A stretch of DNA of 64,000 nucleotides from a virus (IMGVR_UViG_3300018079_000001:1-64000), one strand, 5' to 3'. Shown: positions 10,388-24,459, counted from the stretch's first letter. The notes: generated from the letters alone by a model not told the origin. Made by a program: numbers and translations.

Positions 10388-12655
10388 GTGCCGCGAAAAC
10401 CCGCGAAGGCTCAGAGTAGCGGTACTGCAACAGTCATCGGGCACGGTGGAAATGCAAAGGACTCTATGGCCCTCGAACACGCGCACGGTACGATCCGATG
10501 GCTAGCCGCTGACGCTGTTAGCACGGTCTACACTGTTAGCGGTCTATCCTTTCAGCCCAAGGCTCTAAGGTTCTACTGGCAGGGTTTAGGTAACGCCACC
10601 GACCAAGCCTCTCAGACAATCCATTCTCGACGCGGAGTTGGATTTTGCACAAGCACTTCCTTGCGCCGCGCAGTTGGGTCTCAAGATCAAGACGCCGCTG
10701 GCACGATGGTGTGTACGTCTGGTCTGCGAAACGATTGTGTAGCTTTTAGTCTCACAAGCACTCCCGCCGCTGACGGCCTTCTAGACATCAATGCAATCAA
10801 CAGCGATGGATTCAGTCTGATAGTTGACGACCAAGGTGTCGTTGACCTTGCGATCCATTGGGAAGCATGGGGCGGTACTGACATCACAGTCGCCACTGTT
10901 ATCGACATCGCTGAGCCCGCCGCCACGGGTGATGTCGATTACACGGTCACGGGGTTTACTTCAGGCGCGACGAATCAGGTTGTCATGTTCGCTGGAGTAC
11001 AATCTACCGCTGCCGCGAATACAGCCACACGCGCGGATAGCGGCCTCTGCGTAGGCTTCGCGGCTGGAATCAACGCTGCTGACAACGTCCACGTTGAAGG
11101 TAATAACGACGATGCCTCGACGACAGCCGATACGGACGGATACTGCAAGACCGGCGAATGTCTCGGCATGATCGCGGTGGCGGGAGGCAATCCGACTGCG
11201 CGAGCGCAGCTTACTCTATTCGGGACCGACAACTTCAGGTTGAACTGGATCGCCCGCGCTACGACGAGTCGCCGCTATATTGCTCTGGCAATCAAAGGTG
11301 GCGGCTGGAAATCGGGGGCGTTGACAATCGACGGCAGCACATTGAACGCCACGGCAACAGTTAGCAGTTTGCCTTTCGCACCCAAGGGTCTATCGCTCAT
11401 GGGCCGCATGTCGATAGAACAAACAGCCGCGACATCGGTGATCGAAGATCGTATGTCTCTTGGCTCGGGCTCGTCAATATCCTCGCGGCGTTGTCAGGGC
11501 ACGTGGTCGGAAGATAACAGCATCACGGGCTCGTCGGTTTGCGAAATTGACTTAGTGCTTGAATACGATCAGGTTCTCGCTTATCCTACAAACGCTGGAG
11601 CGGTGACCGCTGCTAAAGACATTGACTTGATGAACGGAAGCAGTTTCCGTTTGATCGTCGATGCGACCGGCGGTGTGGCAAGCGAGTGGATTGGTTATCT
11701 CACGTTTGGAGACGAGCCCGCAGATATTCAGGAAGGAGACGGGAATTCGGCTGGTGCCGCAGCTTCATCTGTTGTCGGTGCGGCTCTCACTCTAGCAGAC
11801 GGCGACTCTGATGGTGTAGCAATACCGAGCGGCGCGGGTGTTACATTAACTCAAACCACCGCCTCGTCAAGTGGTGCAGCGACCGCGTCAGCCAATAGTG
11901 CTATAGTTATAGCTGGAGACGCTTCTTCTACTGGAACGTCCACAGCCAACGCCCCCGCTAACTCTGTAGCAACAAGCAGCGCAAGTGCAGCGGGTATTGC
12001 GGTAGCGGATGCACCCTCAAGTGCCATCGCTCAGGTTGTGGTGTCAAGTGACGGTGTAGCAACAGGATCGGGTGTCGGCGTGTCGTTCGCTCAGACTACG
12101 GCCGCATCGGCTGGTGTAGCAGTGGGCAACGGCTCGGCGGCTGCTATCGTCACGACAAACGGTAGTTCGGCTGGTGTAGCGGTCGGTGCTGATGTAGGAG
12201 CAGCGATTGCCACCACTGTGTATTCGAGTACAGGTGTGGCGACAGTCCTCGGTGAAGGTGCTAATGGTGCCGAGACCGGGTCTGACTTTGACGCTGACGG
12301 TGTTGCGATCGTGTTGGGTGTTGGGGCCAGCATGACTCAAGCTAACGGGTCGAGCACTGGAACCTCGACAGTAGATGGCCTAACGTCGAGTGTCTTCAAC
12401 GGTGTCGCGAACAGCGCAGGCGTTGCGACTGTTCTTGGTGAGGGTGCTAACGCCGCCGCTGGTGGGATTGTCGAGGCGGTTGCGAACGCGAGCGGAGTCG
12501 CGACTGTCAACGGCATTAGCGACGCTGAGCCAAGCGAGCCGATCGGTCCGACGATCGGTGTGTTCGAGCAGCGAAGCACTTTGGTTGTTCGACCGAGCAC
12601 CAGATTCACAGTGAAATTCAATACTGGTCGGCGTCAAACAGTGAAGCTAGGATAA
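10388..12655 (+). CDS. Fibre-like virion protein (FQPK beta repeats + Ala/Ser/Gly repeat stalk); alternative start 10466
   Basis: GLSFQPKAL and LPFAPKGL repeats; SAGVATV-like repeats. Confidence 0.6.
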   Translation: MPRKPAKAQSSGTATVIGHGGNAKDSMALEHAHGTIRWLAADAVSTVYTVSGLSFQPKALRFYWQGLGNATDQASQTIHSRRGVGFCTSTSLRRAVGSQDQDAAGTMVCTSGLRNDCVAFSLTSTPAADGLLDINAINSDGFSLIVDDQGVVDLAIHWEAWGGTDITVATVIDIAEPAATGDVDYTVTGFTSGATNQVVMFAGVQSTAAANTATRADSGLCVGFAAGINAADNVHVEGNNDDASTTADTDGYCKTGECLGMIAVAGGNPTARAQLTLFGTDNFRLNWIARATTSRRYIALAIKGGGWKSGALTIDGSTLNATATVSSLPFAPKGLSLMGRMSIEQTAATSVIEDRMSLGSGSSISSRRCQGTWSEDNSITGSSVCEIDLVLEYDQVLAYPTNAGAVTAAKDIDLMNGSSFRLIVDATGGVASEWIGYLTFGDEPADIQEGDGNSAGAAASSVVGAALTLADGDSDGVAIPSGAGVTLTQTTASSSGAATASANSAIVIAGDASSTGTSTANAPANSVATSSASAAGIAVADAPSSAIAQVVVSSDGVATGSGVGVSFAQTTAASAGVAVGNGSAAAIVTTNGSSAGVAVGADVGAAIATTVYSSTGVATVLGEGANGAETGSDFDADGVAIVLGVGASMTQANGSSTGTSTVDGLTSSVFNGVANSAGVATVLGEGANAAAGGIVEAVANASGVATVNGISDAEPSEPIGPTIGVFEQRSTLVVRPSTRFTVKFNTGRRQTVKLG

Positions 12656-13704: not shown

Positions 13705-15045
13705 ATGCAAACAGCAGTCGGCAGTTTTGCGATTGGGGTAGGAGGCGTTGGCACAACCGTCACGGTTAGTGGTCTGCCATTTCAACCCAAGGCTGTCATC
13801 TTCTCGTGGTCTGGCCGCACGGCGGTAGGCCAGGCCGAGGCGGATCACAAGATGGGCGCGGGCTTCATGGTGAACGCCACCGAGCGAGGCGGCTCGGCGA
13901 CGGCCAGCATCAACGGGTTCGACATCACAGGCGCCAAGAATCGCTCGTTCTCCGACGCGTGTATCAAGATCATCGAGGCGTTCACTAACACAGTCGAAGG
14001 CGCAGCCGATTTCGACGCGTTCCTGTCTGATGGTTTCCGCGTCATAATCGACGATCAGTTCCCCGTGAGTTTCCTGATTAACTACATCGCGATCGGCGGC
14101 GCCGACCTGACGAACGTCAAGGCAATCACGATAACGCCTCCGGACGTTGACGGCGATCAGGACACGACGACCGTTGGATTCAAGCCCGACTGCGCGATGT
14201 TTTTCGGAGGGGCGGAAGTGACGACCAGTGGAAGCGGCTTGGGTTTTGGCGTGGCTGCACAGGACCCACCCGTGAACGCCGTCTTGGTGGGCAACGCGCG
14301 TGACGGTTTCACGACGACGGAGACGAAGTCTTACTGCCGGTTGGGCGACGAGTGCACAGCGGGGCGCCCAAACCCGGCAACGTTTGACATGCTGCGTCGG
14401 GGCAAGGTGACGAGTTGGCTGAGCAACGGCTTCCGCATGGCCTGGCTGGACACGTCTGTTCTTCAGCCAAATATTCAAGTTCTCTGCCTGAAGGGCGGCA
14501 CGTACGCGGTCGGCGACCTGCTGACGCGGACGGACGGGACGCCGTTCAGCGAGATGGGCCTGCCGTTCGAGCCGCGAGGGCTGATCTTCGCGTCGCACAA
14601 CAAGGCGCAGAGCGCGGCTGATACCGCTCAGGCTCTCGACGAGCGGTCCATTGGATTCGTTGCAAGTGCCACGCAGAGAAACTACGTCGGCGTACTTGAC
14701 AAGGATGCGATTCAGGTTGACCCAGGCCCCGGGGTGACCGAGGTTGGTGTAGCACATAATACAAACGAGTGTTATGTCAATCAGAGCACCGCCGCGACCA
14801 TCATCATCGAAGGATTGATGGATCTAACGTCGATGAACGCCGATGGTTTCACAGTCGTTATGAACGATCCGGACCCGGTGTCGTCCTTTGTGTGGTATCT
14901 TGCGATGGGTGACGGAGTTGTGGACGTAGGGGGGGGGGTTTCATCCAAACCAAAACAAAAACCGTCATCAGGTGCTTTGTGGGCTGCTATTCGTGAGCAA
15001 CTTCGCAGTGAACCAAAGAAGTATAAAAGACCTATGATTTTATGA
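13705..15045 (+). CDS. Fibre-like virion protein, paralog of the 10388 N-terminal region
   Basis: TVSGLPFQPKA, GFKPD, LPFEPRGL, DGF repeats. Confidence 0.6.
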   Translation: MQTAVGSFAIGVGGVGTTVTVSGLPFQPKAVIFSWSGRTAVGQAEADHKMGAGFMVNATERGGSATASINGFDITGAKNRSFSDACIKIIEAFTNTVEGAADFDAFLSDGFRVIIDDQFPVSFLINYIAIGGADLTNVKAITITPPDVDGDQDTTTVGFKPDCAMFFGGAEVTTSGSGLGFGVAAQDPPVNAVLVGNARDGFTTTETKSYCRLGDECTAGRPNPATFDMLRRGKVTSWLSNGFRMAWLDTSVLQPNIQVLCLKGGTYAVGDLLTRTDGTPFSEMGLPFEPRGLIFASHNKAQSAADTAQALDERSIGFVASATQRNYVGVLDKDAIQVDPGPGVTEVGVAHNTNECYVNQSTAATIIIEGLMDLTSMNADGFTVVMNDPDPVSSFVWYLAMGDGVVDVGGGVSSKPKQKPSSGALWAAIREQLRSEPKKYKRPMIL

Positions 15046-15869
15046 TTCCAAGCACCTACTGCGTAAGTAAACGCCACAAAGTGCTTTGGGCGACCATGAA
15101 CTTCCTGGCCGAGCGGGACAGGTGCGGCATCCGCACAAAGAAGTGGGATCGCCCTGTGATCAAGGAAACGGTGGACCGCCGCAAGCTGATCCTTGAACAC
15201 AACGCAGCCGACGTGTTCGCGGACGTATTCGATCGCCAGCGGAACGCCGTGCTTGACGTGTACCCATCGAAGCGGCGCATGAGCGAGGCCCTGCAAGAGA
15301 CGCGCGAAGCCTTAGAGCAGGCGTACTGGAAAGTGTACCTCGACACCGCGTCAAGCTACGGTCCGTGGGCGGCTCGGCACCTGGACGCGACGATGAAGGC
15401 TCCCGATCCGTTCCGTGATCCGATGGTGAACTGGCTTCGTGGCAACGCAGCGAGTCGCGTGGCAGACATCAACAAGACGACACGTGATCGGTTGCAGGTT
15501 ATCCTGGCCGAGGCGACCGAAGAGGGCGATAGCCTGCAAGAGACTGCGAGCCGGATCGACGATCTGTTCCTCGACGAGATCATTCCCAACCGAAGCATGG
15601 TGATCGCGCGGACCGAAGTCGGTAATGCGGCTAACTTCGCGGCGCACGAAGCGGCACAGGCGACGGGCGTGCCGATGGAAAAGACCTGGAACACACTCGG
15701 CGATCCGTTCGTGCGCGATATTCACGCGGACGCAGACGGGCAGACAGTCGAGATCAATCAGGACTTCACCGTGGGTGGCGAGTTCCTGGGCTGGCCAGGA
15801 GACATCAGTAAGGGAGCGAGTGCTGGCAACGTCATAAACTGCCGGTGCTTCTTGACGTACGACGTATGA
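15042..15869 (+). CDS. Phage head morphogenesis protein (MuF / SPP1 gp7 family)
   Basis: IN.TTR, RSMVIARTE...A.N, KTW...D..VR..H...DGQ, VINCRC. Confidence 0.92.
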   Translation: MIPSTYCVSKRHKVLWATMNFLAERDRCGIRTKKWDRPVIKETVDRRKLILEHNAADVFADVFDRQRNAVLDVYPSKRRMSEALQETREALEQAYWKVYLDTASSYGPWAARHLDATMKAPDPFRDPMVNWLRGNAASRVADINKTTRDRLQVILAEATEEGDSLQETASRIDDLFLDEIIPNRSMVIARTEVGNAANFAAHEAAQATGVPMEKTWNTLGDPFVRDIHADADGQTVEINQDFTVGGEFLGWPGDISKGASAGNVINCRCFLTYDV

Positions 15870-18800
15870 TCTACAATCGTACCCCGGACTACGTGATCAA
15901 GACCGCGCTCGACAAGAGCGACGGAATCATGGTGGCACTCAAGGTGCCCACCGACGCTGCCCGTCTGCTCGCGCTCGAAGGTGGACAGCCGCCAGAGGAC
16001 TTGCACCTGACACTCGCTTACCTTGGCAAGCGTGACGAGTTCACGCCTGAGCAATTGGGTACGCTACACGACATTGTCGGAGCCATAGCGCGCACAAGTC
16101 AGCCTGTCGAGACGCAAGTTCGCGGGTATGACGTGTTCCCCGACACCGACGACGGTCCGTGCCTATACGCGACGGTGGACACGACGCAATCGCTCCTGGA
16201 CCTGCAAGAGACGGTCGTCGAGGCTGTGTCGTCCTATGGCATGCCGCCACAGGGCAAAGGACAAAGCAACGGGCGGTGGATTCCCCATATCACTCTGGCG
16301 TACCGGGAGAGTGCTTCCCCGCCTGACGTGCCGCCTGTATCTGACCTGACTTTCGATTGGCTTCGCGTCGCGCTAGGCAGCACCGAGGCACTGATGCGTC
16401 TGAAGAAGTTCGAGGGCGCCATTGCGGCGCAGCCGGAACTGAAGCGGCCAGAGGACACGAAGGAAGAGAACTTCCTGAAGGGCGCAACGACCACGAGCAC
16501 CATGGACAGCGGCGGGCGCATCGCACCGGGCCAGGGCAGGTTCCGCCGCATCAAGGACAGCGGCGGGCTCACGGCACCCACGGACGGTGGTGAAGTTAAC
16601 CCGTTACACTTGGTGCCGCGCCGGCCGAAGCGCACGGGTGAGGGCACCGAGGCGTACACGGCATCGAACGAGATATACACACCGACGCCCGGCCTCATGA
16701 AAACCATCACGAAGGTAGGCAAGGCGGTCGCGATCGACTTCGATGGTACGATAACGCTCGACGAGAAGGGCACCGAGAATCCGAAGATGCGGCGGCTGGT
16801 AGACATGCTCCTAAGCAACGGGGTCCGTGTGGTGATCTTCACCGCGCGCCCCGGCGCCGAAGTTCACGCGTGGCTGCGCGAGCATGCCTGGCCGTCGCTC
16901 GAAGTGACAGATCGCAAGTCACCTGATTTCGCTGTGTACCTGGACGATCGAGCCGTGGGTTTCTCCCCGGACAAGGTTGGACAAGGGCTTGCGCAGGAGT
17001 TGGCCGAATTCAAGACATGGTGGGAAAAGAGTGCGAGCGACATGGGTGCACAGCCAGAGACGCGCGATCGTCTGGCGAAGCTGCCGGCCGTGGCGATCAC
17101 GAACGCCGAAAATAACACCGCTGAATGGAACGAAGCCATGCACCCGCGTACGGCTGCGGGTACCGCTGAGGGCGGTCAGTTTGCGGCTGCGGGCGGTGGC
17201 AATGCTGCTACACCGGCTGATGCGCCGAAGGGCGATGCCGACCAGGAACACCGCGCACAGCGGGCGCGTGAGTGGAACAAGCAACATCCTGACGATCAGG
17301 TGCCGATACCTGGCGACAAGCCGAAGACTCCTACTGAAGATCAGGCAAGACAAGCGGCGCAGCATCAGTGGCGCGAGGGTAACCCCGAGCGAGCAGCCGC
17401 CGCTGATCGGTGGAACGCTGAGCATCCGGGTGAAGAGCCCGCGAAGCCGGGCGGCACGGCCAGGACTGACCGTACCGACGAAGCTGCGGCGTGGGTCTTG
17501 GCACATCAAGGAGTACCGGGAGCATTTGCTGACGATTGGGCGAAGCCCGCACAGGTAGGCGACACGTTGCCGGGCGGTGGACGTGTGCAGCCGGGCGACT
17601 TGGGCACAGAAGAGAACAAGCCACTGGCCCCTGGTTTGCCAACCGATCAGTTGGGCAAGGAACCGCGCGTGGGGATGCCGGGCGGCGGTACGACGCCGAC
17701 ACCGGAGTCTGTGCCTGGCACCCCGCCGACGCCTGAGTCGTGGGGTGATCTGAACGCCGATCAGCAGGACAAAGCGCTCGTCGCCTGGAAGAATGCAGCG
17801 CGTGATGACTTCATGCAGATGGAACGAGAGGGTTGGGAGGAAGACGAATCCAACTTCGAGCACGTGCCGAAGGACTTGCAGGGCAATCCGGAGTGGAACG
17901 AACAAGCGCTCAAGGACATCAACAACGGGTTCTATCCGGGCGATCCTGTCGAGGGTCTTGACGACCAGGGCGGCGGAACACCGGCCGCACATGCTGAGCA
18001 AGAGCGACGCATTGCTGAGTGGCGTGATAGCTTCGCGATTGACGACTCGATCAAGGCAGGCGCGTTCTCTGTGGATACTGGTGCGGTGGGCGCACTCGAA
18101 GTCAATACCGACTTGCTTGTGTTCAAGGACAATCCGTACACCGAAGACTCGGGACAGCAGATGCTCCCCGGCATCGACCGTGAGATGATGTACAAAGAGT
18201 TCAACAAGCAGAAGTGGGCCACAGTCAAGTCTGATTTCGAGGAGAGGTATAAGGAAGCGTTCGACACGGAAGTCGAGAAGCGCGTTGACATGATCAAGGA
18301 GAATCCGCCCACGTTTGACGTGAACGAGCGGATGGGTGACTATTGGGACGAGATGGACGACAAAGAGAAGTTCAAGCAGGCGCAGGAGCATCTGCCTAGT
18401 AGCGATCTGCGTGGTGGTGGTACAAGCAGTGAAGGTAGTCAGGGCGAGGGCGAAAAGGGAACAGTTGGACCAGACAAAGAATACGACACGAAAGAACAGA
18501 AAACAATTCAGAGTAAGAAACCAACAACTAAGAAAAATCTCGGTGGTGGTGTCAGCGAATCAAAGGTAGTCACAATGGCTGACGGTTCAAAGTACGTGTG
18601 GAAACCTTCTACTGGAGAGGCCAATGTCCGTGACGGTATCAATGCTGGTGTACAGTACCAGCGAGAAGTTGCGGCTTACGATATCGGACGCATCGTCGGG
18701 ATGAAAAACTTTATGCCAGTTGCGTCCATCTTCAAGTATGAAGGCAATTACGGTACAATGATGGAGATGATTCCGGACGCCGACAACGACGGTAAGAGCG

Positions 18801-19183
18801 GGGATGATGACTTCGCTGATAGTGCTTTGCGAGGTACATTCTTTGATTTCATTATCGGCAACACTGACCGCCACGGTGGAAACTGGATGTCCGACGACGA
18901 TGGCAAATTGTGGTTGATTGATAACGGGTTGTCTTTCTCTGAAGACAAAGCCGAAACAGCACGTTTCGGTATGTGGAGTAAAGTCGATCACGGTGCAGGC
19001 GAAGATGATGAAATTCCCGAATCAATAAAGAAGCCGTGGAAGGGGAAATGGTCGAAGATCAAGGAAGCAATGGAGCGGCGCAAGATCAGTACAAAAGCAA
19101 TGAGGTACGTCGAAGAGCGTTATAAAAAAGCCATAGAAGATGGCGTGACGTGGAAAGACTTGGGCGTGGAGGGGGCATTTTGA
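15866..19183 (+). CDS. Head-associated polyprotein 1: 2H phosphoesterase + HAD-like phosphatase + HPR motif + shared helical domain + C-terminal PI3/4-kinase/HipA-like kinase
   Basis: LHLTLAY/PHITLAY; AIDFDGT..IFTAR..YLDDRA; WNEAMHPR..GGQF; KYVWKP..REVAAY..FDFIIGNTDRHGGN..LIDNGLSF. Confidence 0.85.
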   Translation: MIYNRTPDYVIKTALDKSDGIMVALKVPTDAARLLALEGGQPPEDLHLTLAYLGKRDEFTPEQLGTLHDIVGAIARTSQPVETQVRGYDVFPDTDDGPCLYATVDTTQSLLDLQETVVEAVSSYGMPPQGKGQSNGRWIPHITLAYRESASPPDVPPVSDLTFDWLRVALGSTEALMRLKKFEGAIAAQPELKRPEDTKEENFLKGATTTSTMDSGGRIAPGQGRFRRIKDSGGLTAPTDGGEVNPLHLVPRRPKRTGEGTEAYTASNEIYTPTPGLMKTITKVGKAVAIDFDGTITLDEKGTENPKMRRLVDMLLSNGVRVVIFTARPGAEVHAWLREHAWPSLEVTDRKSPDFAVYLDDRAVGFSPDKVGQGLAQELAEFKTWWEKSASDMGAQPETRDRLAKLPAVAITNAENNTAEWNEAMHPRTAAGTAEGGQFAAAGGGNAATPADAPKGDADQEHRAQRAREWNKQHPDDQVPIPGDKPKTPTEDQARQAAQHQWREGNPERAAAADRWNAEHPGEEPAKPGGTARTDRTDEAAAWVLAHQGVPGAFADDWAKPAQVGDTLPGGGRVQPGDLGTEENKPLAPGLPTDQLGKEPRVGMPGGGTTPTPESVPGTPPTPESWGDLNADQQDKALVAWKNAARDDFMQMEREGWEEDESNFEHVPKDLQGNPEWNEQALKDINNGFYPGDPVEGLDDQGGGTPAAHAEQERRIAEWRDSFAIDDSIKAGAFSVDTGAVGALEVNTDLLVFKDNPYTEDSGQQMLPGIDREMMYKEFNKQKWATVKSDFEERYKEAFDTEVEKRVDMIKENPPTFDVNERMGDYWDEMDDKEKFKQAQEHLPSSDLRGGGTSSEGSQGEGEKGTVGPDKEYDTKEQKTIQSKKPTTKKNLGGGVSESKVVTMADGSKYVWKPSTGEANVRDGINAGVQYQREVAAYDIGRIVGMKNFMPVASIFKYEGNYGTMMEMIPDADNDGKSGDDDFADSALRGTFFDFIIGNTDRHGGNWMSDDDGKLWLIDNGLSFSEDKAETARFGMWSKVDHGAGEDDEIPESIKKPWKGKWSKIKEAMERRKISTKAMRYVEERYKKAIEDGVTWKDLGVEGAF

Positions 19184-21666
19184 AAGTTACCGTAATCGGC
19201 TACTCGGGCAACGATCACATTGTTATTGGTGAGCTACGTGTACTCGGTGGCAAAATTGTCGTCGCGCCGAATCCTCACTACCGAAATCAAGATCGCGCCC
19301 GTAAAATACTAGAGTCGATTGCAACTGACCCTGTACGGTGGGCTGGACAAAAAATCGGTCCGGACAAAGTACAGGTGTTTATGAATCTGTTGCATACGCA
19401 GTATAGTGGCTCGTACTTGCGTGTTACTAAGCCGGAGATTGACAGCCTGAAGAAGTGGGATGAAGCTGACCATCCGCGCGTGGGCTCTGGCGAACACGGT
19501 GGCGAGTTCACGTCTGGTGGTGGCGGTGGAGCGGGAGCGGCTGACGACACGAAATCCTGGACGAAGGACAAGGCCCCGGCAGACCAGGAGCGCGCTGCGA
19601 AGTTGGAAACGGAGCGACAGACGGCGGTCGGCAACGTCGAGAAGCTGGTGTCAGGCGTAACCGGCTCCGACGAGAGTGGTCAGGCGTTGACGAGTCCGTC
19701 CCAAGTCAAGACGTGGGCGAACATGCCGCAAGAGTGGCAGGGGCACGCGGCGAACGGATTCATCAGTGACTACGTCAATGGCAACATGCCCGCCAGTGAA
19801 GAGTGGCAATCCAAACCCCACACGTGGGACCAGGTGCCGCAAGATTGGAAGGACAAGGGCAAAGCGGACTATCTGACCGGGTACGCTGTTGGTGATAGCC
19901 CTACGCCCGCTGCTCTTGCCGAGGGCGTGGCGAATTGGGAGAAGATGCCCGATCAGGAAAAGCTGGAATACTCACAGCAGATGTACAACCAAAATGCTGC
20001 AAAGGAACGGCAGAGACTCACTGACGAGGCGGGCAGCCTGTGGGGTGACATGGGCGACGAGGGTAAGCTAAACTTCGCGCAAACCGAGGCGAAGGACTTC
20101 CCTGAGTTAGCGGTCGAGGAAGATGACCCTGACTCCGACGAGCCGCCGAGTGAAATGTCTGTTGATGATTTCGGTGATTGGGACGGGCTTCCGAGCGACT
20201 GGCAGGAGAAGACAAAAGAGAAGTGGATGGAGGACTCCTACGCCGAGTTCGAGCAGAGCGAGAAGGAATCATTCGAGCCCGACCGCGACTACCACGAAGA
20301 GCGCGTCTCCGAGGACGAGGATGCGGTGCACGCCCTGATCAAGGAAATTCCCGAGGAAAACTACATCTACCCTGGCATGGGCGAGTACGAGACACCGGAG
20401 GATGCGGAGGAAGGTGGAGCCGAGGACAAACGCCGCGAGAAAGAGTGGCAGGAAAACTTCGACCTGAAGGCGTCGGTCGATGACGGCGCGTTCACCTGGG
20501 ACAAAAATGGCGAACTGACTGTGGATACTGACAGGTTGGTCTTCCACAAAAATCCTCACGAGGATGACGCGCAGCAGATGATCCCTGGCGTTGATCGCGC
20601 GGAGTTGTCGAACGCGTACAAGAAAAGCCAGTGGGAAGGCGTTGCTCGGGACTACGAAAAAGAGTTCAAGGCGAAGTTCGAGAAGGCCGTCGAGAAGAGC
20701 ATGGAGGAAGAGTCCGAGAACTACGAACCGGACAAATCCTCTGTCGAAGAGTACATGGAGCAGCAGTGGGATGACGGCTTTAGCGACAAGCAGAAGTTCA
20801 AGCACGCGCAGAACTACCTGTCTGACGAGACGGTCGAGAGTGATCAAGAATCGACAGCAGGCAGTGGTGGACCAATCCGCATACCGAAAGCCTTCGAGTT
20901 GTTCAGCGGCGAAGACGAAAAGAACCCTGGCGACTACAAGATGACCGGGCGCCTGGGTCGTGCGCTCACCATCGCCCGTGCCGAGCAGATTGCGAAAGAA
21001 CGCGGCATCGAGGATTTTGGTGGTGTCAGTTCGATGGAGAGTTTGGGCAACACGCTGTGGGAGGGCTGGAAAGGTTCGTCCACAAACAGCCACGGTAAGT
21101 TGCTTCAGGTTGCGTCGGCGGACGAGTTGGGCGGCAATTTGCAACCGTGGCTCGCTGAGGAAGCAGACGCGATTCGCAAGAACAGAGGATACCCGGCCGC
21201 AAAGGCATACGTGCGCGGGCTGTGGGAAACTTCACAGTACCTCATGCACAAGGCGGGCATGAAGGAACTGGACATATACCGGGGCATCATGGTGGACGGC
21301 GACAAGTTGGCAGCAGAAAAAACCGAGCGCGTCGTGGTACACGGCAACGATATGGAGCGTATTGCAGAAAAGCACTTCGACCAGAACGGAGCCGCGTCGT
21401 TCACAATGAAGCGCGACGTGGCAAACGGCTGGAACGGCATCGGGCACAACATGCCGCCGAACCCGAAGCGGGTCGTGCTTCGCGCTCGTGTCCCTTTAAC
21501 GGCTGTGCTTGCGCTGCCCGCGTATGGCAAGAACTACCACGAGGAAAAGGAAGTCGTCGTGGTTGGCACCCCGTGGAAGAAGTGGGACGCCTGGAAGCAC
21601 AAGGCCCCGACGATTGGGGAGACGGAATCAGACGTAGCGCTCAAATGGAGGACGGCTCGTGCTTGA
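19180..21666 (+). CDS. Head-associated polyprotein 2: small N-terminal domain + HPR motif + shared helical domain + C-terminal ADP-ribosyltransferase-like domain
   Basis: TTG start with RBS GGAGG; WDEADHPR..GGEF; IYRG, ASFT, HEEKEVVV (R-S-ExE). Confidence 0.75.
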   Translation: MKVTVIGYSGNDHIVIGELRVLGGKIVVAPNPHYRNQDRARKILESIATDPVRWAGQKIGPDKVQVFMNLLHTQYSGSYLRVTKPEIDSLKKWDEADHPRVGSGEHGGEFTSGGGGGAGAADDTKSWTKDKAPADQERAAKLETERQTAVGNVEKLVSGVTGSDESGQALTSPSQVKTWANMPQEWQGHAANGFISDYVNGNMPASEEWQSKPHTWDQVPQDWKDKGKADYLTGYAVGDSPTPAALAEGVANWEKMPDQEKLEYSQQMYNQNAAKERQRLTDEAGSLWGDMGDEGKLNFAQTEAKDFPELAVEEDDPDSDEPPSEMSVDDFGDWDGLPSDWQEKTKEKWMEDSYAEFEQSEKESFEPDRDYHEERVSEDEDAVHALIKEIPEENYIYPGMGEYETPEDAEEGGAEDKRREKEWQENFDLKASVDDGAFTWDKNGELTVDTDRLVFHKNPHEDDAQQMIPGVDRAELSNAYKKSQWEGVARDYEKEFKAKFEKAVEKSMEEESENYEPDKSSVEEYMEQQWDDGFSDKQKFKHAQNYLSDETVESDQESTAGSGGPIRIPKAFELFSGEDEKNPGDYKMTGRLGRALTIARAEQIAKERGIEDFGGVSSMESLGNTLWEGWKGSSTNSHGKLLQVASADELGGNLQPWLAEEADAIRKNRGYPAAKAYVRGLWETSQYLMHKAGMKELDIYRGIMVDGDKLAAEKTERVVVHGNDMERIAEKHFDQNGAASFTMKRDVANGWNGIGHNMPPNPKRVVLRARVPLTAVLALPAYGKNYHEEKEVVVVGTPWKKWDAWKHKAPTIGETESDVALKWRTARA

Positions 21667-24088
21667 GATAGAACTGGACAAACCTGGCGACCCTCACTGG
21701 CTGTCCAAGCCGAAGAAGCTGCGCAAGTTCGACCCGAGTCAGCAGCGTGACGAGGACGGCAAATGGTCGGAGACGGGTGCGGGAGGTGGCGCGACCACCG
21801 AACCGAAGGGCAGCGCAGGTCACGGATACGAGGCCCCGAAGGGGCAGGCTAGCTTACCGGCCGAAGCCAAGGACATCGCGGACGAATACGATTCCGCCCC
21901 CGAGATCGGACCAGGCGCAAAGGAAGCGTGGGCGAAGCTGTCGGCTGACATTGACCGGGACTTCGCCGAGATCACCAAGACGGTTGCAGTCGAGAAGGTC
22001 ACAGGTCAGCCGTACTCGTCGATCGACGAGATGTTCGCCGACATCGACGCTGGCCGCTTCAAGGTGACGACCGACTACTCGCAGCATCCGCTGTGGTCGG
22101 AGGATCAGAACTGGAAGTTTCGTGTGGTGCATGACTACTACGGACACTACAAGACGGGCGACAAGAGCGTGGACTTCTCGCTGGAAGGCGAACGTAGCGC
22201 GTTCTTGAGCCAGGCGCAACGGTCAAGCGACCTGGACGCGCGTCGGGCGTTGCAGACCGAAGTATACGGGCAAGCATCCGCGTTCTACAAGAACGGTGCA
22301 TTTGGCAAGCAGAAGGTGTATCTGCCGGGAGCGGACGTTGCGGAGCGGTGGACCGCGCCGGCAGCGCAGGACTTCATCACGGCGCGTGACCGGAACCCTC
22401 GGGGGGACTTCTTCTCGCACCTGGAGCCGGGCGACCTGAAAGGCTACAAGCTGATCATGAATGAGTCGCACTCGGCGGGAGCGGCCGTTGCGCCCGATGG
22501 CGACATTCAGAACGTGTTCCGCAACCCCAACTCGCCGAAGGGTGCCGGGACAGCCGCATTGCACGAGGCTGTACGGCAGGGCGGGCTGATGCTCGACGCG
22601 TACGAATACGAGACTCCGGGTCAGCCGGGCCTGCCAGACGTGTACCGCAAGGCGGGGTTCGTCGAGACGGGCCGCATGAAGTTCAACCCGGCGTACCGTC
22701 CAGCCTGGGGACCAGAGCGGCGGCCAGATGTTGTGTTCATGGCTTACGTGGGTGGCGATCAATCGAAGTCGCCGAAGTCAGACCACTACTACCAGCCGCA
22801 CGAATGGGATCGTGCTAAGAAGGAATCCCTGGCCTCGGCCGATGCGCCAGGCGAGAGCGAAATAGCACGGCAACTGCGTGAGCAGCGCTCCCGTCGCGCA
22901 TATCAGGATGTGAACAGGCCGAAGCTGCCGCCAGAGGTAGATCAGGCACTGAGAGGGCTCGGCAAGTCAGTGCTCTCGTCCAAGGACCGTGAGGACCTGA
23001 AAATCAAAACGAACAAAAAGAAGTGGGGTGGTCGGCCACATGTCTTCACTGCCGCCGAGTGGACGCACCCGAACGGACATCCGCGCTGCGTTCGTTGCGG
23101 CGACGAGGAACCGAGTGACGGGCTGTGTATGCCGGAGTTGCTGAAGTGGGCAACCATGCTCGATGTTGCCATGTCTGGCACTCATCAGGTGGATAGTGGT
23201 AAAATAAAAGAGAAGGGAACCTTCATGTCGAAGAGTTGGATCGCAGAGTTTCATGCCGATTGCATCACAAAGGGAGCCGCCTGCTCCGTGAAGTGGCCAG
23301 TGTGCCCCGAGAAGAAAGCTGCCGTCGAGAAGTACATCCGCGAAGAGGGTGGGAAGTTCAACGTCTACTCCGAGGACGGCAAGAAACTCGGCACGCATTC
23401 GACCCGAGCCGAGGCCGCCGCGCAGCTTCGCGCAATCGAGGCGAACAAGGACGCGACGCGCGGATATCCCGAGTTGGGTGTACCTCCGGCTCCAGTCGCG
23501 ATGAAGGCATTGCAGGGTGCATGGAACGCGTACGCGAAGTCGGTCGGGATCGTGTTCAAATCTGAGGAAGTTCAAGCTGAGCCGGTCGAAAAGGGCGTGT
23601 ACCGAGTCGCGGCTCCGGGCGGGAAGTGGGTATACTTCGCGGTCGAGGGTGACCAAGCGGGGCGGGTCGAGTATCAGCGGAAGAACGGTATGCTGGCCCC
23701 GGTGGTGAAGGCCGAGAAGCAGCGCTATACCCTCGGCGCCGTGTACGCGCCGGGTGAGACGGATTTTCATGGCGACACCATGACCGAAGTCGAATTGGAA
23801 AAGGCGGCGTGGGCGTTCGCACAGAAGGACGGGCTCACGGGCCGCGTCGGGCTCATGCACCAATCAGGCACGGAAAAAGCGGGCAAGGTAGTCGAGTCAT
23901 ACGTCTACCGTGGTCCGGTGTGGAAGTTCAAGGACACCTCGGGTGTGACTCAGACGATCACACCGGGCACGTGGATGCTCGGTGTCGTGTGGGAACCGGA
24001 GGGCTGGAATCAAATCGAACGTGGCAGCGTGCGGGGTTATTCACTCCAAGGGGTTGCCCGCAAGTTCGCCAATGGGGAGGAAGTATAA
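21659..24088 (+). CDS. Head-associated polyprotein 3: HDxxGH domain + GNAT-like domain + Zn finger + C-terminal XkdF-type prohead serine protease
   Basis: FRVVHDYYGH; GDIQNVF..KGAG..GG.MLDAY..YRKAGF; protease GAVYAPG..D.HGD, MH, VVESY, GTWMLG, GYSLQG. Confidence 0.8.
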   Translation: MLEIELDKPGDPHWLSKPKKLRKFDPSQQRDEDGKWSETGAGGGATTEPKGSAGHGYEAPKGQASLPAEAKDIADEYDSAPEIGPGAKEAWAKLSADIDRDFAEITKTVAVEKVTGQPYSSIDEMFADIDAGRFKVTTDYSQHPLWSEDQNWKFRVVHDYYGHYKTGDKSVDFSLEGERSAFLSQAQRSSDLDARRALQTEVYGQASAFYKNGAFGKQKVYLPGADVAERWTAPAAQDFITARDRNPRGDFFSHLEPGDLKGYKLIMNESHSAGAAVAPDGDIQNVFRNPNSPKGAGTAALHEAVRQGGLMLDAYEYETPGQPGLPDVYRKAGFVETGRMKFNPAYRPAWGPERRPDVVFMAYVGGDQSKSPKSDHYYQPHEWDRAKKESLASADAPGESEIARQLREQRSRRAYQDVNRPKLPPEVDQALRGLGKSVLSSKDREDLKIKTNKKKWGGRPHVFTAAEWTHPNGHPRCVRCGDEEPSDGLCMPELLKWATMLDVAMSGTHQVDSGKIKEKGTFMSKSWIAEFHADCITKGAACSVKWPVCPEKKAAVEKYIREEGGKFNVYSEDGKKLGTHSTRAEAAAQLRAIEANKDATRGYPELGVPPAPVAMKALQGAWNAYAKSVGIVFKSEEVQAEPVEKGVYRVAAPGGKWVYFAVEGDQAGRVEYQRKNGMLAPVVKAEKQRYTLGAVYAPGETDFHGDTMTEVELEKAAWAFAQKDGLTGRVGLMHQSGTEKAGKVVESYVYRGPVWKFKDTSGVTQTITPGTWMLGVVWEPEGWNQIERGSVRGYSLQGVARKFANGEEV
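23196..23213 (+). promoter_or_regulatory. Promoter motif A copy 3, internal to polyprotein 3, before in-frame ATG 23225
   Basis: GTGGTAAAATAAAAGAGA followed by AGGGA and an in-frame ATG. Confidence 0.65.
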
Positions 24089-24459
24089 TGGCACACACAT
24101 GGTACAGAGAAGACGCATTCCTGAACACGAAGAAGCCGGCCAGTTTCGACCCTGTCCAGCCGGGCAACATCGGCGGCATCGAGCCGAAGCCGAAGACGAT
24201 GGCCGGTCCGCCCGAACCGTACGTGTGTGAGATCGCGAACACGGACGAGACAGCGAAGGTTCGCACCGAGACGGCGAAGGTTGGTGACGCAGTGAATCCG
24301 GTGGCGACCGACGCGGCGATGGGCAAGGACACGTCTTTCAGTCCTGGTCGTCAGGAAGACGGCAAGTACGAGGGCTCACCCGAGTTGTACCAGCCCGGCG
24401 ACGAAGACGCGAACCTGTACAGTCCTCGGGACTGGACCGCGACGAACGAGAGGAACTGA
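24088..24459 (+). CDS. Hypothetical head-module protein
   Basis: TAATG overlap; RBS GGAGG. Confidence 0.55.
   Translation: MAHTWYREDAFLNTKKPASFDPVQPGNIGGIEPKPKTMAGPPEPYVCEIANTDETAKVRTETAKVGDAVNPVATDAAMGKDTSFSPGRQEDGKYEGSPELYQPGDEDANLYSPRDWTATNERN

Follow-up and report, generated by a model that had tools for sequence, protein, structure and literature searches.

A head-cargo kinase tip and a small downstream partner domain, HipS-like by predicted structure, form one exchangeable phage cassette

Phage heads carry enzymes that are injected together with the DNA, and how the phage and the producing cell are protected from these head-borne enzymes has, to our knowledge, been little studied. A locus in the viral genome IMGVR_UViG_3300018079_000001 brings this question into focus. 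In the 64,000 nucleotides (nt) analysed here (bases 1-64000 of a complete 101.8-kb IMG/VR virus genome with direct terminal repeats; hereafter the window), an AT-richer stretch runs across the boundary between two open reading frames (ORFs) of the head region. It covers the C-terminal kinase tip of ORF1 (18479-19183, + strand, including the stop codon) and the first 92 codons of ORF2 (19180-19455, + strand), which encode a small alpha/beta domain at the head of that protein (hereafter the N-domain). Do the kinase and the N-domain belong together and, if so, what might the second do for the first? A reading of the sequence alone had proposed that the kinase tip and this domain of ~90 amino acids (aa) constitute one evolutionary unit, and our analysis agrees: the domain is found in 9/9 phage loci, stays with the kinase and co-diverges with it.

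Co-occurrence of the domain downstream of kinase tips in other genomes carries this conclusion. A relative of the N-domain begins at most 8 nt from the kinase stop codon in all nine phage loci that have this type of kinase (the window, L001, L002, L004, L007, L009, L010, L011 and L012). A kinase profile scan of IMG/VR recovered seven distinct contigs, and in five of them a hidden Markov model (HMM) of the N-domain matched directly 3' of the kinase stop (E = 1e-15 to 1e-30; E = 1e-20 to 1e-27 in the same five contigs with an enlarged HMM). Among the two most distant kinases, L009 is followed by a divergent, fused N-domain (E = 0.02) with the same junction motif after it (see below), and L010 by a 94-aa ORF that, judged by eye, has the N-domain pattern. 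The reverse approach, starting from the N-domain, found a kinase immediately upstream in L001, L012 and P0011 (the L002 protein). Five more distant kinases (L013-L017), on contigs of Bdellovibrionota metagenome-assembled genomes (MAGs), had no N-domain-like ORF downstream.

The kinase stop and the N-domain start overlap as NTGA in six loci (the window, L001, L002, L007, L011 and L012); the overlap is 1 nt at L010 and either 1 or 4 nt at L004, depending on the choice of start, and L009 has a gap of 4 nt. Judged from gene layout, this NTGA or near-abutting configuration is the classic arrangement for translational coupling. In the window the overlap is TTGA, as the sequence-only reading had noted with peptide strings that match our translation: the TTG start of ORF2 (19180-19182) overlaps the kinase stop TGA (19181-19183), a Shine-Dalgarno sequence, GGAGG (19168-19172, + strand), lies 7 nt before TTG 19180, and a separate gene call for ORF2 in the protein collection (P0004) begins at the identical TTG codon.

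What follows the N-domain varies from phage to phage. It is a stand-alone protein of 82-94 aa in five of the nine loci (L001, L007, L010, L011 and L012), as well as in the homologue P0010, and is fused to varied downstream proteins in 4/9. Specifically, L004 and L002, relatives of the window phage (55-67% identity in ORF1-like and 47-56% in ORF3-like proteins), have no ORF2 body, and in them the N-domain is joined without any intervening part to the ORF3-like protease protein. L001 encodes a true MuF-kinase fusion (715 aa) with the kinase at its tip, and there the N-domain that comes next is a free ORF of 89 aa. Across these arrangements the N-domain appears to track the kinase, whatever gene comes downstream. 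No natural in-frame fusion of the kinase and the N-domain exists. Pairwise identities among the kinases and among the N-domains were correlated (Mantel r = 0.73, p = 1e-4), with the N-domain diverging about twice as fast as the kinase (35-38% versus 64-71% identity). Overall, the kinase and its cognate partner move as one cassette.

In the window phage this cassette coincides with a break in base composition. The stretch 18410-19455, which had been singled out as AT-richer from the sequence alone, has a GC content of 0.482 against a mean of 0.589 (SD 0.028, z = -3.8) over all 1046-nt segments of the 64 kb, and no other segment of that length is as GC-poor. The dip is seen both in sliding GC and in codon usage, with GC at third codon positions (GC3) dropping along the cassette to 0.40-0.60 from 0.70-0.80. 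A two-change-point likelihood scan of the third codon positions of ORF1 and ORF2 placed the maximum-likelihood limits of the low-GC3 cassette at 18391-19545 (+ strand; support 18376-18415 on the left and 19356-19569 on the right), with a GC3 of 0.505 inside (384 codons) and 0.722 outside (twice the log-likelihood difference = 63; 0 of 2000 permutations as extreme). Both limits given earlier, 18410 and 19455, lie on or inside these support intervals. The return to normal composition had been placed near LKK-WDEADHPR, and the right break indeed coincides with the end of the ~88-aa domain or comes just past it, close to WDEADHPR. Plain GC sags from ~18100, but GC3 is still 0.78-0.80 at 18100-18390, where GC at second codon positions (GC2) is 0.24, and the codon-usage boundary was therefore placed at ~18390 rather than at ~18100. 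The sag is an amino-acid effect of the Lys/Glu/Asp-rich pre-tip module that precedes the kinase tip; the left break therefore lies where this module, which ORF1 and ORF2 share, comes to its end.

The kinase-plus-N-domain stretches of L004, L002, L012 and L001 have a GC3 equal to that of their own flanks, and the low-GC3 signature is therefore peculiar to the window phage. On the simplest reading, a donor of lower GC content probably supplied this phage, in the recent past, with a replacement for the whole two-part unit, and the breaks lie where the pre-tip module ends and close to the junction motif. Exchange of a tip together with its partner is how tip-plus-immunity cassettes behave in polymorphic toxin systems. 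A DNA alignment of the junction motifs showed conservation at the protein level only; a long identical recombination substrate was not found.

Which enzyme is being exchanged? The 234-aa tip belongs to the PI3/PI4 kinases: it matches Pfam PF00454 with 39.4 bits against a cut-off of 27.1, as PF00454 also matches 13/13 of its relatives, its catalytic Lys (VWKP), DRHxxN loop and IDNG metal site are intact, and K65, D153, R154, N158 and D171 are invariant in an alignment with the 13 relatives (A5). Its AlphaFold2 (AF2) model (predicted local distance difference test, pLDDT, 83.6) best matched phosphatidylinositol 4-kinase type II (PI4KII; Z = 20-21, 225-236 residues aligned), followed by Fam20 and CtkA (Z ~15), HipT (Z = 11.6-14) and HipA (Z ~11). 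According to the model, the kinase shares its fold with HipT and HipA but is closest to PI4KII. The DRxxxN and IDNG motifs are common to the phage tip and the eukaryotic PI4K type II alpha/beta enzymes, its best structural match; in contrast, identity to these is ~17%, and the phage kinase lacks their membrane-binding inserts and occurs in a bacterial-virus context. HipA_C (PF07804) reached 13.7 bits, below its cut-off of 30.5, and gave weak matches in 5/13 kinase relatives (best E = 0.0014). The closest cellular relatives (L013-L017; 25-32% identity) come from Bacteriovoracaceae, Bdellovibrionaceae or Pseudobdellovibrionaceae MAGs, and in L014 and L016 the kinase-bearing open frame is longer than 500 codons.

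Sequence annotation gave the N-domain no family in Pfam (E <= 10), PHROGs or NCBIfam, no usable ESM Atlas match and chance-level matches only against PDB sequences. The N-domain is also rare: a full HMMER pass over 1.84 billion representative proteins returned eight matches, including ORF2 itself; one of them, P0008 (4064 aa), was rejected as a repeat-protein artefact that matched only at residues 16-39. In the six true relatives, proteins of 88, 158, 307, 546, 767 and 974 aa with differing downstream domains, the N-domain sits at the extreme N-terminus (residues 1-~86). P0007 (158 aa) joins it to a C-terminal CxxC...CxxC zinc ribbon and P0009 (307 aa) to an HExxH-containing domain, and the N-domain thus appears to have been joined to several unrelated modules. 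IMG/VR scans with P0009, P0007 and P0006 as queries found 0 matches.

The predicted structure of the N-domain is more telling. Its AF2 model (pLDDT 94; predicted template modelling score, pTM, 0.84) has the order b-b-b-a-b-b-a-b over residues 1-85. Among 48,161 PDB representatives, the top matches to this model were the HipS chains 7ab3_B and 7vkb_B (Z = 5.1, 75 residues, root-mean-square deviation 3.5), followed by HipA N-subdomain 1 (5k98_A, Z = 3.9; 4pu3_A, Z = 3.8), and a second structural look gave 7ab3_B (Z = 5.1) and 7czo ("N-terminal domain of HipA toxin", Z = 5.0), with the next chain at 3.3. Because five entries of one family match, and because that family is itself dedicated to partnering a kinase with the fold of the phage tip, this likeness is unlikely to be due to chance, and a true HipS-like fold is quite probable. 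The sequence profiles did not place the N-domain in the HipS family, and a search for HipA N-terminal homologues yielded chiefly E. coli fragments that were nearly identical, and no HipS profile diverse enough to be of use.

HipS neutralises HipT, corresponds to HipA N-subdomain 1 and wedges a residue beside the Gly-rich loop (PMC10627512). The HipBST systems of E. coli O127:H6 and Legionella pneumophila (7AB3, 7VKB, 8EZR) resemble the phage module in pairing a Ser/Thr-type kinase of PI3/4-kinase fold with a separate protein of ~100 aa, which binds the kinase in HipBST and probably does so in the phage, HipS being the best structural match of the N-domain and HipT a second-tier match of the phage kinase. 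They differ in gene order, hipS lying upstream of hipT whereas the N-domain lies downstream of the phage kinase, and the phage module has neither a HipB regulator nor detectable Couple_hipA or HipA_C sequence similarity. Furthermore, the phage kinase is closer to PI4KII and sits on the tip of a head cargo protein, not in a chromosomal toxin-antitoxin (TA) operon. A HipS-like domain does lie downstream of the kinase in hipJS, hipIN and HipL, and in hipIN the HipS-like part is the N-terminal domain of a two-domain protein (Gerdes et al., 2021, PMC8262856). Kinase first and HipS-like element second is the order seen in the phages, and by analogy hipIN offers a direct precedent for an N-domain that heads ORF2. 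In contrast, these are cellular TA-like operons with a HIRAN partner domain, recognisable HipS sequence similarity and putative antitoxins, whereas the phage N-domain is fused to cargo or protease proteins, resembles HipS in structure only and has a putative antitoxin role.

If the N-domain is a partner of the preceding kinase, how is it set apart from the protein that it heads? Directly after it, ORF2 carries a junction motif, WDEADHPRVGSGEHGGEF, followed by a Gly run (19456-19509, + strand), which is a candidate processing or hinge site. The consensus of such motifs is [K/R]-[aromatic]-[D/N/S]-[E/P]-x-x-[H/Q/E/P]-[P/Q]-R-...-G-x-[F/W], then a Gly run. The motif lies within 0-45 residues after the N-domain in 7/8 fused forms; the same type follows the N-domain in L002, L004, L009, P0005, P0006 and P0009. 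Because it also occurs inside ORF1 (WNEAMHPR...GGQF, then Gly-rich; 17126-17185, + strand, located by a regular-expression scan and included in the junction alignment) and close to the N-terminus of ORF3 (~21716-21775, + strand, by motif scan), it appears to be a general inter-domain junction of the cargo proteins; further sites are at 2705 and 5755 in L004, ~980 in L002 and ~5040 in L009. No Pfam family corresponds to the motif, which may be a protease site, a hinge or a docking peptide. The confident N-domain fold extends to residue ~85 and stand-alone homologues continue for another 2-14 residues; ORF3, the next gene after ORF2, encodes a prohead protease. Motif, fold end and protease would be compatible with processing at the junction, where the sequence-only reading had supposed that the leader might be clipped off at a Lys site.

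The pre-tip module that bounds the cassette on the left is itself shared between the two cargo proteins. This "carrier" of ~240 aa (17741-18445 in ORF1, + strand) is paralogous to 20179-20871 of ORF2 (BLASTP of ORF1 aa 633-867 against ORF2, 35% identity, E = 6e-28) and has no Pfam or PHROG family. It directly precedes the kinase tip in ORF1 and another tip in ORF2 (20872-21663), which reads like an R-S-E ADP-ribosyltransferase (ART; YRG ... SFT ... EEKEVVV). The latter tip is ART-like by motif only and has no Pfam, NCBIfam or PDB sequence match.

The sequence-only reading had cast the ~90-aa domain as an immunity protein for the kinase. We find this plausible, and it is a reasonable inference from the modest likeness to HipS and HipA N-subdomain 1 (Z = 5.0-5.1) and from a layout in which a small coupled gene follows a toxin. 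Under this mechanism, the N-domain would be translated by termination-reinitiation at the kinase stop (TTGA) and would dock on the kinase, paralleling HipS for HipT and the immunity proteins for MuF toxins. On balance, the N-domain probably binds the kinase tip and keeps the enzyme silent during synthesis and packing of the late proteins. In the window phage and several others, the N-domain would have become the N-terminal leader of the next packaged protein, parted from it by the junction motif and a Gly-rich linker, at which the prohead protease could detach it. A further step is more doubtful, and we offer it as a tentative possibility: the next capsid cargo protein may carry the inhibitor as a leader that is meant to be cut off, so that the protease arms the kinase in the capsid. 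In that case the kinase would be kept inactive as long as it is in the cytoplasm of the producing cell, and would be armed only within the procapsid, after sealing, when the XkdF-type prohead protease cuts the junction motif and the ~10-kDa leader is lost.

Several observations weigh against the above interpretation. Co-divergence is expected of any two linked genes through their common phylogeny and amounts to consistency, not proof, and the nine-locus context count leaves out the N-domain homologues P0005, P0006, P0007, P0009 and P0010. A Z of ~5 is a low structural score in absolute terms; Foldseek found no match to the N-domain model in PDB and BFVD at E <= 0.001, Pfam Couple_hipA (PF13657) had no match at E <= 10 in any of the 11 N-domain members or in the whole phage genome, and hhalign of the N-domain alignment (A4) against the E. 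coli HipA N-terminus returned a probability of 0.3%. By its predicted structure, the kinase appears to be a complete PI4KII-like enzyme and no clear HipT orthologue. In HipA, moreover, the same subdomain belongs to an active kinase, and by this analogy a HipS-like fold alone would not be proof of inhibition. Unless cleavage removed it, a putative inhibitor in fused form would also end up in the capsid alongside its target. Finally, no comparable partner domain follows the ART-like tip, at the start of ORF3, and a partner is therefore no general need of such tips.

The main rival explanation makes the N-domain an obligate partner that does not inhibit the kinase, such as an activator, a substrate adaptor or a split-off subunit of regulatory or N-subdomain-like character, and that has to be delivered with it; fusion to the next packaged protein would then serve co-packaging. 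This rival accounts well for the fused forms, since an inhibitor fused to cargo would enter the capsid with its target unless cut off, and joint delivery would agree with the fusion of the N-domain to head cargo in at least four of the nine loci and in most database homologues. Strict co-occurrence and coupling would suit any tight partner, and HipA N-subdomain 1, which shares the top structural ranks with HipS, belongs to an active kinase (PMC10627512). However, the phage kinase aligns over 230 of 257 residues with PI4KII (Z = 20-21) and, measured against that enzyme, needs no extra subdomain, and the stand-alone forms of 82-94 aa have no evident route into the capsid. The roughly twofold faster evolution of the N-domain is more typical of antitoxin or immunity partners, and in HipBST, the one split system to have been tested, the antitoxin role falls to the small protein. 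We consider an obligate, non-inhibitory partner rather unlikely, and inhibition of the kinase remains our preferred explanation.

Alternatively, the N-domain could be a docking module that grips the preceding kinase tip and so chains ORF1, ORF2 and the protease protein non-covalently into the procapsid. In favour of this, the cargo genes are linked by overlapping stops and starts, and L004 and L002 carry the N-domain on the protease-bearing protein, which must enter the procapsid. This is hard to reconcile with the five loci, and P0010, in which the N-domain stands alone with nothing to tether; additionally, the L001 kinase is already fused to MuF, itself a head protein, and P0007 and P0009 fuse the N-domain to a zinc ribbon or an HExxH-containing domain, which are not head proteins, all of which makes docking improbable. 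Least credible by far is the absence of any functional link, the dip being due to the local amino-acid make-up or to codon choice linked to expression, and the ~88 residues forming a generic ORF2 leader: part of the plain-GC sag (18100-18390; GC2 0.24, GC3 0.78) is indeed an amino-acid effect and the N-domain has no annotated family, but this is already contradicted by GC3 change-points that are sharp and significant, by homologous stretches of the relatives that lack the dip, and by an N-domain that tracks the kinase rather than the ORF2 body, stands alone after the kinase in other phages and is predicted to fold as a confident autonomous domain.

The cassette lies in a head morphogenesis block on the + strand that runs from MuF through ORF1 and ORF2 to ORF3, which encodes an XkdF-type prohead protease. 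The MuF (SPP1 gp7-type) head protein gene (15042-15869; Pfam Phage_Mu_F, 3.2e-13) is 5' of the cargo genes, and its TGA (15867-15869) overlaps ATG 15866, which is probably the start of ORF1 (1105 aa) rather than GTG 15845 (1112 aa). ORF1 (15845-19183) is a polyvalent cargo protein composed, in order, of a 2H/LigT phosphoesterase (Pfam 2_5_RNA_ligase2, 6.9e-12; LigT_PEase), a HAD-like domain (Hydrolase_3, weak), the junction motif, a linker, the pre-tip module and the kinase tip (PI3_PI4_kinase). ORF2 (828 aa) extends from TTG 19180 to 21666, its body (19456-21666), delimited by translation and paralogy, comprising a linker, the pre-tip module and the C-terminal tip. In ORF3 (21659-24088), the junction motif close to the N-terminal end is followed by middle domains and, at the C-terminus, by an XkdF-type prohead serine protease (23708-24067; Pfam Peptidase_S78_2, 1.1e-20; PHROG head maturation protease). 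All stops and starts from MuF to ORF3 overlap (ATGA at 15866-15869, TTGA at 19180-19183 and 8 nt at 21659-21666), a chain that suggests coupled and roughly equimolar translation of the cargo proteins. A programmed -1 frameshift joining ORF1 to ORF2 or MuF to ORF1 was rejected, a slippery heptamer being absent and the conserved feature being the NTGA overlap. GenBank phages (INPHARED) gave 0 matches to 15000-24100 by megablast and to the kinase tip or the N-domain by tblastn. Elsewhere in the window, a 755-aa ORF (10388-12655) without a Pfam match has a GC2 (0.577) above its GC3 (0.537), its neighbours having a GC3 of 0.66-0.75, and it is either a Gly/Ala/Pro-rich protein or called in the wrong frame or strand.

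How does this block compare with the known effectors of phage heads? In one survey, a small ORF followed 89% of MuF toxin genes (Jamet et al. 2017, PMC5576092), and the word 'kinase' has 0 occurrences in that survey. As in MuF toxins, the cargo is a head-module protein behind portal and MuF, with a variable enzymatic tip and a small coupled ORF, and tip and partner are exchanged as a cassette. The variable C-terminal tip is followed by a small (<150 aa) ORF in L001, L007, L010, L011 and L012, where this ORF is free and 82-94 aa long, and L001, a true MuF-kinase fusion with an 89-aa ORF, also has the N-terminal MuF. Unlike in MuF toxins, MuF in the window is a separate, ATGA-coupled gene in another frame, with no slippery site, and the partner is not a free ORF but the first 92 aa of the 828-aa cargo protein that comes next.

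Polyvalent proteins, in turn, have an assemblin-like protease at the C-terminus, and cassette-like recombinational variability has been suggested for them (Iyer et al. 2017, PMC5512222). Accordingly classed, ORF1 holds at least two effector-type domains (2H phosphoesterase, HAD-like and kinase) in one polypeptide and sits in a late/virion context between MuF and the protease-bearing ORF3. The likeness extends to the combination of 2H phosphoesterase, HAD, kinase and ART-like domains in polypeptides of the late/head region and to the assemblin-like protease at the C-terminus of the last protein. In contrast, the kinase clade described for polyvalent proteins is of Ser/Thr/Tyr type, without the C-terminal subdomain, found in Verrucomicrobia-Chlamydia and Bacteroidetes, and not PI4KII-like, and no cognate partner or immunity domain has been described for it (PMC5512222).

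The cassette thus belongs to a kind that is already known, both from head cargo or MuF toxins of phages, which have a small coupled partner, and from Hip-type kinases paired with a HipS-like one. New are a kinase clade that, from its models, appears PI4KII-like and has a partner that is HipS-like by structure only, a partner built as the leader of the next cargo protein, and a cleanly mapped cassette swap. The latter is a clear natural case of a tip-plus-partner unit exchanged between phages with its breakpoints mapped, and the pair itself is compact, with a kinase of 234 aa and a partner of 88 aa. The module connects MuF polymorphic toxins and their immunity genes, polyvalent proteins and the split HipT/HipS kinase-antitoxin systems. 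Throughout these cargo proteins, the junction motif could serve as a general signal for processing or as a hinge, and the fused-leader form raises the idea of an activation timed by the prohead protease. If true, an injected HipT/PI4KII-like effector would be switched on within the capsid, at a time set by the protease.

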